Positions 51,553 through 54,045 of a stretch of 64,000 nucleotides of DNA are shown in pieces. Under the pieces are notes generated by a model. The model had not been told where the DNA came from. It was given only the letters and a program-made list of their open reading frames with translations, and did not search any database. Origin of the DNA: a virus; IMG/VR virus record IMGVR_UViG_3300044699_000100, positions 779 to 64,778 of that record; one strand, given 5' to 3'. Each line of letters starts with the position of its first letter. Position 1 is the first letter of the stretch. Made by a program: the position numbers and the translations under genes.

Positions 51553-52806
51553 TGGTTCGCTCCATTTGCTTGGTACTCTCCTCTGGGCTGGCTCGCTCTC
51601 TAATCATGGCACTCTCGGCAGCGTTGGCTCGCTCTTTTTTCTTGGTGCTCTCAGGTCCCATGGCTCACTCTTTTTGCGTGGTTCTCTCGGCGTTCATGGT
51701 TCGCTCATTACTTTTGGTGCTCTCACTCGTTATGGCTCGCTCACTTTAGGTGGTGCTCTCTCGTAAGATGGCTCGCTCACTGAATGTGGTTCTCTCTTGT
51801 TGAGTGGCTCGCTCTCGTGGTTTGGTACTCTCTGAGAGGGTGGCTCGCTCTATTTGTATGGTGCTCTCGCAGGCGATGGCTCACTCATTCGATAAGGTTC
51901 TCTCGGCATCCATGGTTCGCTCACCGAATGTGGTCCGCTCTCTTAGTAGGGCTCGCTCAACTGATATGGCGCTCTCTGATTGGCTGGCTCGCTCTTCTTT
52001 GAGGGTACTCTCACTGCACAGGGCTCGCTCACGTCGGTTGGTTCTCTCACACTGAGTGGCTCGCTCATTCCACGTGGTACTCTCTCCTTAAATGACTCGC
52101 TCTTCTTGCTTGTTCTCTCGGTATTGGTGGCTCGCTCCGTTGGTTTGGTTCTCTCATTCTTCATGGCTCGCTTAGATTTTCTGGTGCTCTCGCTTCACGT
52201 GGCTCGCTCATATAGAGTGGTGCTCTCTACTGGGATGGCTCGCTCTATTGGTTTGGTACTCTCCGACGTTGTGGCTCGCACGTTTGACATGGTTCTCTCG
52301 CGTTCTATGGCTCGCTCCATATTTTTGGTGCCCTCACTGTATATGGGCTCGCTCACTCCATATGGCACTCTCGGCTATTCCGGCTCGCTCCGTTGTTCCG
52401 GTACTCTCTATTCCAATGGCTCGTTCCGGATTTGTGGTACCCTCATCTGCTTTGACTCACTCTCGGTACTTGGTACCCTCGCTGCCTATGGCTCGCTCGC
52501 CAATCGTGGTGCTCTCAGAGCAGGTGGCTCGCTCATTCTACATGATACCCTCAGGTCCATTGGCTCGCTTATCATTTGTGGTTCTCTCTTGTCGAATGGC
52601 TCGCTCTAGGCCGACATGGTACTCTCTGCTCCAATGGCTCGCTCACCATATATGGTTCTCTCGTGCCTAATGACTCGCTCGTATTGGATGGTGCTCTCCT
52701 AGCAAGTGGCTCGCTCACTCCATATGGCACTCTCGGCTATTCCGGCTCGCTCGTTTTACATGGTACTCTCAATTCTTTTGGCTCGCTCATCGATTATGGT
52801 ACCCTC
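51553..52806 (-). repeat. TIGR-type guide-RNA array, downstream of the tas gene (70 alternating repeats, 35 units of 36 nt)
   Basis: The + strand alternates TGGCTCGCTC / 8 nt / TGGTNCTCTC / 8 nt. On the - strand this is GAGCGAGCC + 9 nt + GAGAGNACC + 9 nt. The period holds over 1254 nt with only three small indels, and spacers are almost all unique. Confidence 0.92.
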
Positions 52807-52818
52807 TACCGAAGTGGC

Positions 52819-53652
52819 TTACTGCTTAACCTCCGGAGGTAATGGGCGTTCGATCTTGTGCGCGTGCCCAAGGTGCGCGATAGGATACGGCAGAGGAGGG
52901 GCTACACCAAACTTCTGAACATACATTTCCTCATGCAGATGTGCGAGAAACAGCTTCACTGCATATCTGCGGGCACGTGCATGGATATGCGCCGGGGGCA
53001 ATCTCCCTTGGATGTAAGCTTTGTAAGCGTCTGTCGCCTTGTTGTAGTTACGCTTAGCGAGGATATCAGCCGCTTGCTGTGCAAAGTCCCCGTTGTTGTT
53101 TTTGGTAGTCTCCTGCTCTTTGCGAGTCTTATAAATTACGCCATAGAAGCAACCATCCGGTTGCAGTTCTTCACAAAACTCTCGCCAGCTTTCCAGCATA
53201 GTGTTTAAGATCGGCGTTATGCGGTCGTTTCGTGTTCTTGGCCCAGACCTGAGTGGGGTTCAGTCCCGCAAAGGCCCAGATGTGCCCAACCGTCGGAGCT
53301 TTGGTAATATCGATATGGGCAAGCAAGCCTGCACTAATCACTGGCCCAATACCGACAATACTTATCAACCACTTACCGACTGGATGCCCTCTACGAAAGC
53401 TGCAAGCGCAGCTTTGGTTTGCTCTTCGAGGCGCTCGCTTTGCGTGGTCAAGTGTTCCAGTGTCTCGTGCGGCTCCGTAATCATCGAACGCACTTGCCCT
53501 GCGGCACGGATGCGACTGCGCTGCATGGCATAGTAGTTATCAACGAGAAACTTAGCCTCCGCTGCAGACATGGTAGCTGCAGCTTTACGCAAGTCACGGG
53601 AGAGCTTTACAACGCTCGTCCAGATTTCGGGGTCAGTTCCCATATCGCTCAT
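52819..53652 (-). CDS. tasA: TasA-like Nop-domain (IS110 C-terminal-like) RNA-guided DNA-binding protein, no nuclease domain seen, about 277 aa after repairing three 1-nt deletions
   Basis: Coiled-coil FLVDNYYAMQRSRIR, then IVGIGPVISAGLLAHI...GHIWAFAGLNP, LKTLCWKAGESFVK and PPAHIHARARRYAVKLFLAHL. Flanked on both sides by 36-nt dual-repeat arrays. Confidence 0.85.
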
Positions 53653-53675
53653 TTGTTACCTCTGAAGGTTAGGGT

Positions 53676-54045
53676 TGGCTCACTCAACTTTAATGGTTCT
53701 CTCGTCTCGCTTGGTTCGCTCGTCTATTGTGGTGCTCTCTGGGCAAATGGCTTGCTCCATTCTCATGGCGCTATCAAGTCGTTTGGCTCGCTCCACCCTT
53801 TGGTTCTCTCTCTTGGCTGGGCTCGCTCGTTCGATATGGTTCTCTCGGTACTCAGGGCTCGCTCGTCTCTGATGGTACTCTCTTCCAAGATGGCTCGCTT
53901 GCTTTGCTTGGTTCTCTTCGGCTTGAATGGCTCGCTCCCAGTTTATGGTTCTCTCTTGGCCAATGGCTCGCTCGTCTGTTGTGGTGCACTCAACTGACAT
54001 GGCTCGCTTCGGCTCTCTGGTTCTCTCTGTTGGCTTGGCTCGCTT
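53676..54045 (-). repeat. TIGR-type guide-RNA array, upstream of the tas gene (21 repeats, 10 complete units)
   Basis: Same two alternating repeats and 18/36-nt period as 51553-52806, with two compensating 1-nt indels. Confidence 0.9.

Follow-up and report, generated by a model that had tools for sequence, protein, structure and literature searches.

A probable dual-repeat TIGR-TasA accessory cassette carrying 45 guide units in a soil phage genome

The DNA analysed here, referred to as the window throughout, is a stretch of 64,000 nucleotides (nt) covering positions 779 to 64,778 of the 65,490-bp IMG/VR record IMGVR_UViG_3300044699_000100, a soil phage genome rated 100% complete by CheckV. 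At positions 51553-54045 of it, a gene for a small Nop-domain protein is enclosed by two arrays of short alternating repeats (Table 1). We are confident in reading this locus as a dual-repeat TIGR-TasA accessory cassette in the early or replication module of a 65-kb, podovirus-like soil phage related to Rhizobium phages RHph_TM27A and TM29. The identification draws together the sequence and fold of the Tas protein, arrays with a 36-nt dual-repeat unit, a box C shared by the two repeats, an edge repeat resembling that of the SpTasH array, and a tyrosine/histidine (Y/H) dyad.

The arrays are confined to one place and one strand. When the whole record was searched for the pattern GAGCGAGCC-N9-GAGAGNACC with at most one mismatch, 38 sites were found on the minus (-) strand, none on the plus (+) strand and none with the reversed-pattern control, and all 38 fall within positions 51553-54045 of the window, where the first-pass annotation had placed two arrays. 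They form two blocks with an 18-nt half-period, one on each side of the tas gene and both on its strand (-). Parsed as chains, the blocks hold 21 repeats upstream (54045-53676) and 70 downstream (52806-51553), 91 in total, with the two types strictly alternating; the complete units, 10 upstream and 35 downstream, add up to 45 and reproduce the earlier counts. At its start, the downstream array has a 5'-truncated edge repeat, AAGCCA, that overlaps the tas stop codon, and the ribosome-binding motif of the next gene follows directly after its end. Both the edge repeat, GAGCGAGCCA, and the loop repeat, GAGAGNACCA, are 10 nt long and nearly invariant, whereas the spacers are hypervariable, with at most 0.43 bit per position.

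The initial description of two alternating repeats with a 36-nt period stands, but the 9-nt spacers that came with it do not. We read the unit as a 10-nt repeat, an 8-nt spacer, a second 10-nt repeat and a second 8-nt spacer (36 nt), and not as 9 + 9, because an A follows CC in about 89% of the repeats, because Tas complexes have a conserved box C adenine and because the spacers of the SpTasH array are 8 nt long. In structures of Tas complexes, this adenine stacks and does not pair. Edge and loop repeats alike begin with GAG and end with CCA (box C), and thus present the same two motifs, as a symmetric dimer requires. The initial GAG is unlike the UG of TasR arrays and agrees with the AAG/GAG of Salicola phage CGphi29, whose SpTasH array is known from experiment to be processed. 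This array reads AAGCGAGCCA-N8-AAGACAACCA-N8 and lies downstream of tasH, on the tasH strand. The A-type repeat of the window agrees with the SpTasH edge repeat at 9 of 10 positions, and at all 10 in the several copies that read AAGCGAGCCA; the B-type repeat, with a variable fourth-from-last base, corresponds to the SpTasH loop repeat. This match to a processed array therefore allows a probable assignment of the transcribed strand (-), of edge and loop, and of box D (RAG) and box C (CCA). CRISPR-Cas loci, in which one repeat of about 25-36 nt alternates with spacers of similar length and cas genes are present, were considered as a candidate and rejected, since the repeats of the locus are of two kinds that alternate, each 10 nt long and separated by 8-nt spacers, and no partner gene around tas is conserved across 80 loci.

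As recorded, the tas open reading frame (ORF) lies in three pieces. Read through with an X at each of the three breaks, it gives 278 amino acids (aa) with a single terminal stop, 75% identical to the sequence P0001, in which 46 of 46 family-invariant columns are kept; the peptide signatures picked out in the first-pass annotation (GIGP..., LKTLCWK and HIHARARRYAVKLFL) are all present in this read-through. That annotation had also predicted that pipelines would label the gene a transposase, as they indeed do for its family: the middle piece matches Pfam PF02371 (Transposase_20) at 26.7 bits (cutoff 21.3), PHROG 4285, which spans the whole protein, is annotated 'transposase', and the closest relative carries the label 'transposase IS116/IS110/IS902' from the Joint Genome Institute (JGI). 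Comparisons with solved structures bear out the TIGR-Tas identity first proposed. A family profile (A2) built from 40 relatives and compared with PDB sequences matches TaTasR (9mty, E=1.8e-23) and SpTasH (E=4.9e-16) far above IS621 (1.5e-4) and ISCro4 (1.4e-3), and the single sequence P0001 finds TasR at 1.8e-14 and TasH at 1.9e-12. These alignments start past the nuclease domains, at chain residue 123 of TasR (RuvC) and 108 of TasH (HNH), and no Pfam match to a nuclease domain was obtained in the 278-aa protein. Because the alignments begin there and no room for a nuclease is left, we assign the protein, from its sequence, to the TasA subtype.

The predicted structure leads in the same direction. 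For an intact relative, the AlphaFold2 (AF2) model has a predicted local distance difference test score (pLDDT) of 87.7 and a predicted template modelling score (pTM) of 0.83, and its top 11 Foldseek matches in the PDB are cryogenic electron microscopy chains of TasH and TasR (probability 1.0, TM-score (TM) 0.54-0.70), followed by IS621 and ISCro4; the Nop-like fold anticipated in the first pass is thus recovered with Tas proteins ahead of all others. Modelled as a homodimer, the relative scores 0.44, compared with 0.00 for the best control, on a scale whose mark is attained by 21 of the 30 solved homodimers tested and by none of the 23 monomers (pLDDT 79; runs agree in at least 72% of contacts), with the interface on two long N-terminal helices, residues 20-81, that form a coiled coil. 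The dimer model shows likeness and is not independent proof, as it may reflect memory of solved Tas dimers. Furthermore, Tyr257 and His264 of the C-terminal loop align in the profile alignment to Y289 and H296 of SpTasH with the same 7-residue spacing, and across the 40 relatives the tyrosine is nearly invariant and the histidine invariant. In SpTasH these two residues are reported to be catalytic for pre-tigRNA processing (PMC13421893), and the Y/H dyad is reported to be specific to dual-repeat systems; we predict that Tyr257 and His264 are the corresponding tigRNA-processing dyad.

The broken reading frame belongs to the record and not to the phage. Alignment with the intact relative L089 (267 aa) reveals three 1-nt deletions, near 53386/53385, 53204/53203 and 53157/53156, and no other disruption, and all three fall in homopolymers (C/CC, AAA/AAAA and GG/GGG). 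We aligned contigs from four independent soil metagenome studies to the region. Contig X3, which covers 53133-53542, shows no substitution and just three additional bases, at 53156, 53203 and 53385, and contigs X1 and X4 share the insertion at 53385. Irregularities in the arrays disappear in the same manner: a 17-nt spacing at 53810/53793 in the upstream array becomes 18 nt through an inserted base in three independent runs, and the odd spacings at 52119/52102 and 52354/52335 in the downstream array are 18 nt in other runs. At least 10 other genes of the record are split over 2-5 frames when compared with the intact relative genome G001, including those for the portal, DNA polymerase A, SNF2 helicase, tail proteins, a 768-aa protein and a giant 2,471-aa protein (in regions such as 8119-10241, 47713-49606 and 42883-44438). 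As X3 restores all three bases, the sites are homopolymers and core genes are split likewise, the three tas frameshifts are 1-nt homopolymer undercalls and the gene is intact in nature. The repair of three indels proposed at the outset thus has the backing of independent data, and any gene-level reading of the window requires frameshift-tolerant translation.

Both arrays end at a copy of a phage-wide gene-start motif. This 14-nt motif, CCTTSAGAGGTAAC, a small palindrome enclosing a Shine-Dalgarno sequence, has 39 copies in the window with at most 2 mismatches, compared with 0.6 expected, the majority directly before start codons (for example, at 35360, 41753, 51536, 53655 and 55934). Promoter, processing site and operator are candidate roles for it. 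Because the motif adjoins both arrays and no promoter or terminator stands out at the locus, our analysis suggests that the arrays are co-transcribed with the neighbouring - strand genes.

With SpTasH, TaTasR, FpTasA and MbTasA as templates, the following mechanism can be proposed. After co-transcription of the arrays with the flanking - strand genes, TasA would bind box D (RAG) and box C (CCA), common to edge and loop repeats, and Tyr257/His264 would cut the precursor inside each edge repeat to release 36-nt tigRNAs. A TasA dimer with one tigRNA would then open a 16-bp site at which each spacer pairs with a different strand, so that the target would read spacer A followed by the reverse complement of spacer B, a geometry adopted because TasR leaves 8-nt 3' overhangs. 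Without a nuclease, the complex would stay bound and block transcription or replication. On this analysis, the system is most likely a multiplex RNA-guided DNA binder or repressor aimed at foreign DNA. With 45 different guides, none of which matches the phage's own genome, the complex is most likely directed at foreign DNA inside the infected cell, such as rival prophages and other mobile elements, or host genes.

Could the gene instead be what its database labels say, the remnant of an IS110-family insertion sequence that happens to lie beside unrelated tandem or coding repeats? The Transposase_20 match and the PHROG 4285 label speak for it, but we give this explanation practically no weight. 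IS110-family transposases combine an N-terminal DEDD (RuvC-like) domain (PF01548) with a C-terminal PF02371 domain; the window protein has a short PF02371 match only, no PF01548 and, in 278 aa, no room for a DEDD/RuvC transposase domain. IS621 and ISCro4 match it 15-20 orders of magnitude worse than the Tas proteins do and also rank below them by fold. The repeats, for their part, obey the grammar of TIGR arrays and match the SpTasH edge repeat, and spacers with at most 0.43 bit per position are unlike coding repeats. A decaying TIGR locus, in which the frameshifts of tasA are real in this phage lineage and the arrays have either lost their Tas protein or rely on another one acting in trans, would account for three frameshifts in the deposited record that lie inside the most conserved part of the gene. 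It is nonetheless very improbable: every one of those sites is a homopolymer undercall, an otherwise identical independent contig has the intact frame, and no invariant residue has been lost. Moreover, the portal, DNA polymerase, SNF2 helicase and tail genes are broken likewise, and these cannot all be dead in a phage recovered by several independent soil studies.

Having favoured an intact TIGR-TasA cassette aimed at other DNA, we also weighed a role closer to home, in which the system controls phage genes by acting as a temporal switch at the promoters of the phage. TasA proteins do act as transcriptional repressors, and the cassette lies in the early region, where the genes around it run in the same direction. 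However, none of the 45 guides, in either geometry, has a site with at most 1 mismatch in the 65,490-bp genome, and sites with 2 mismatches are at chance level. Phages with the same backbone do not have the spacers in common, and the cassette is absent or relocated in relatives, neither of which fits a core regulatory circuit; such self-regulation therefore seems highly unlikely. The want of targets also tells against our own interpretation, and other observations do so with it. No target with at most 1 mismatch was found in 85 loci (747,552 bp, including 81 related viral loci and the whole of G001; controls gave 0-2), nor was any target for the 45 guides present in Rhizobium phage RHph_TM27A together with 22 bacterial and archaeal Tas loci (127 kb). 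Targets of 16 nt are too short for a database-wide search, in which hundreds of chance matches are expected in a genome collection. A search of bacterial genomes for prophages with a related portal protein, meant to reveal the host, returned nothing. Promoter and terminator scans at the locus gave background levels only, with none after either array; published TIGR arrays typically end in a terminator. The phage was found in no RNA run, so that we infer expression, processing and strand, and the AF2, Foldseek and homodimer tests ran on a 75%-identical intact relative and not on the window's own sequence.

One weak lead to a natural target comes from a relative. Acidobacteriaceae bacterium KBS 96 has a prophage-borne TasA relative with 6 guides, and the predicted target of its guide 2 (spacer A plus the reverse complement of spacer B) is matched at 16 of 16 positions about 0.5 Mb from tas (KB906767.1, about 6,329,962; 1501-1516 of our extract L119, identical to 11963-11978 of L122). 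The site spans codons 9-14 of an HTH_17 gene of the excisionase type, which belongs to the lytic-side operon of another integrated phage-like element, whose order is tRNA-Glu, tyrosine integrase, cI-like repressor, two divergent HTH_17 genes, capsid and prohead protease. After correction for composition, 0.001 such matches are expected by chance for this guide, and 0.014 for the whole array. The match was not replicated: neither the 12 guides of an alphaproteobacterial metagenome-assembled genome (MAG; 5.8 Mb) nor the 4 guides from a Solibacteraceae MAG (8.2 Mb) matched exactly. This brings the search overall to 1 exact match versus about 0.06 expected, with an overall P of about 0.06; matches with a single mismatch, for one KBS 96 guide and one MAG guide, equal the chance prediction. 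We regard the KBS 96 match as a lead and not as a result. If confirmed, it would be a natural TIGR target in a cultured bacterium. More tentatively, and with considerable doubt, TasA-clade guides may form a library against the regulatory genes carried by rival mobile elements that share the host, a multiplex RNA-guided silencer in the conflict between phages and prophages.

The arrays themselves are in motion. Compared with those of 80 relatives, the window spacers have 1 common 8-mer, versus 1.8 expected, and no unit in common. Within the window, units DN03 (52752) and DN13 (52390), ten units apart, are identical (copies at 52708-52752 and 52346-52390), down to a G, rare at repeat position 10, and the uncommon loop variant GAGAGTGCCA. 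Spacers that nearly duplicate one another are also more frequent than expected, with 18 at a distance of at most 1 versus about 6. A strain variant found in two independent soil studies (contigs X1 and X4) lacks 72 nt, or two units, of the downstream array (52698-52779) and has two insertions in the upstream array, at 53694-53703 and 53783-53793, of about one unit each (36-37 nt by joint coordinates). As this strain differs by 36-nt units at internal positions, the arrays gain and lose whole units internally. As a separate observation, arrays beside related TasA genes in an alphaproteobacterial MAG and in Halomonas sp. NO4 (L095 3793-4180 and L097 2711-2971) have a 72-nt super-period, in which two edge-type repeats, GATCGAACCA and GAGTGAGACA, take turns and a loop repeat comes after each.

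The family to which the locus belongs is sizeable. The protein has at least 127 relatives in IMG/VR, and all 80 of the 80 examined are encoded by a single intact ORF of about 265-300 aa. Arrays were detectable with the window repeat consensus at most of these 80 loci, with a median of about 11.5 units, a maximum of about 53 and one locus at 45. Table S1 of Faure et al. 2025 (PMC12045711) already includes the genes of the closest relative, under its JGI label, and of the KBS 96 relative. The locus is therefore a large but not exceptional member of an already catalogued Tas clade, and its interest rests on its size, the context of a phage rated complete and a testable target lead, not on novelty of kind.

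The phage itself has cultured kin. In the portal protein it shares 66% identity with Rhizobium phages RHph_TM27A, TM27B, TM29 and TM3_14A, with which it has in common a backbone of ATPase, VWA metallopeptidase, DNA polymerase, VRR-NUC, SNF2 helicase and primase genes; despite this backbone, tas was not found in any of the four. In the window, the TIGR-tasA cassette (51553-54278) is placed between the VWA gene and the polymerase, whereas in G001 (L089/L090), otherwise collinear in backbone, it comes after the SNF2 helicase, and RHph_TM27A (MN988461.1; L117/L118) lacks it. Since it occupies different slots in these genomes and is absent from RHph_TM27A, it behaves like a movable accessory cassette. 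Across the 80 loci, no conserved partner gene, such as an adaptation module or ParB, was found around tas, and the neighbours are ordinary replication-module genes (for example, SNF2 helicase, PD-(D/E)XK nuclease and DNA polymerase A). Among 50,697 records of cultured phages, none matched the locus at near identity, and at the protein level distant homologues among cultured phages are limited to Salicola CGphi29, one Microcystis phage and one Gordonia phage. Upstream of the cassette's first array, either the array overlaps the coding 3' end of the ORF at 53943-54278 or an indel hides its real stop; given the indels of the record, this 3' end is uncertain.

Table 1. Features of the TIGR-tasA locus, in window coordinates
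Feature	Position	Strand	Description
Upstream ORF, function unassigned	53943..54278	-	Recorded frame enters the first 2.5 array units; unmatched in Pfam and PHROG
Upstream TIGR array, 10 units of 36 nt	53676..54045	-	11 edge (G/AAGCGAGCCA) and 10 loop (GAGAGNACCA) repeats; 8-nt spacers A and B
Gene-start motif copy CCTTCAGAGGTAAC	53655..53668	-	Between the upstream array and the tasA start codon
tasA gene (solo Nop-domain Tas)	52819..53652	-	278 aa, read through 1-nt gaps after 53386, 53204 and 53157
C-terminal loop PYPIAHLGH, predicted tigRNA-processing dyad	52864..52887	-	Tyr257 (52885-52887), His264 (52864-52866)
Downstream TIGR array, 35 units	51553..52820	-	35 loop and 35 edge repeats plus a 5'-truncated edge
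Second gene-start motif copy	51536..51549	-	Between the last edge repeat and ORF 51533-51249
Next ORF past the downstream array, 94 aa, function unassigned	51533-51249	-	Not separated from the array by a terminator

Although the locus leaves the general picture of TIGR-Tas unchanged, it is a good specimen, with 45 guides in a phage genome rated 100% complete. It also illustrates how an indel-rich record can hide such a system from routine annotation, where a split gene is labelled a transposase and the arrays are too short for CRISPR finders. Strain variants that differ by whole 36-nt units bear on array turnover, and the backbone match to cultured Rhizobium phages offers a possible entry point to the laboratory.

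Among the closest known systems is SpTIGR-TasH of phage CGphi29 (PMC12045711, PMC13421893). It is likewise phage-encoded, with a dual-repeat array on the strand of its gene, a 36-nt unit of 10-nt repeats and 8-nt spacers, an edge repeat AAGCGAGCCA (G/AAGCGAGCCA in the window) and a loop repeat ending in ACCA, and its protein has a homologous Nop domain (E=4.9e-16) and a Y/H dyad with equal spacing. The window protein differs in lacking the HNH domain, and so should bind rather than cut; its gene is flanked by two arrays, with 45 units in all instead of about 11 and no terminator after the array, and protein identity is only about 25-28%. TaTasR (PDB 9MTY), the best sequence match of solved structure (E=1.8e-23), shares the Nop fold, the coiled-coil dimer and the CCA of box C, but has an active N-terminal RuvC domain, 9-nt spacers and a box D of UG, where the window has RAG and no nuclease. 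More remotely, the IS110/IS621 bridge-RNA recombinases and Nop5 of the box C/D small nucleolar ribonucleoproteins share an ancestral Nop-type RNA-binding domain and the logic of a dual-segment guide; the matches are weak (E=1.5e-4, TM about 0.5), and the window lacks a DEDD recombinase domain, a single bridge RNA and the partners fibrillarin and L7Ae. Also close in architecture are FpTasA of Flavonifractor plautii and MbTasA of Minisyncoccota, likened here by description and not by sequence, which are also solo proteins of coiled coil and Nop domain with no nuclease and which bind 36-nt tigRNAs or act as RNA-guided repressors (bioRxiv 10.64898/2026.09.09.750476). MbTasA uses stem-loop guides, judging by the context given in the preprint, whereas the window system belongs to a dual-repeat phage clade with the Y/H processing loop. 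The mode of action predicted for the window system is the same as theirs, namely guide-directed binding of DNA and a block to transcription.

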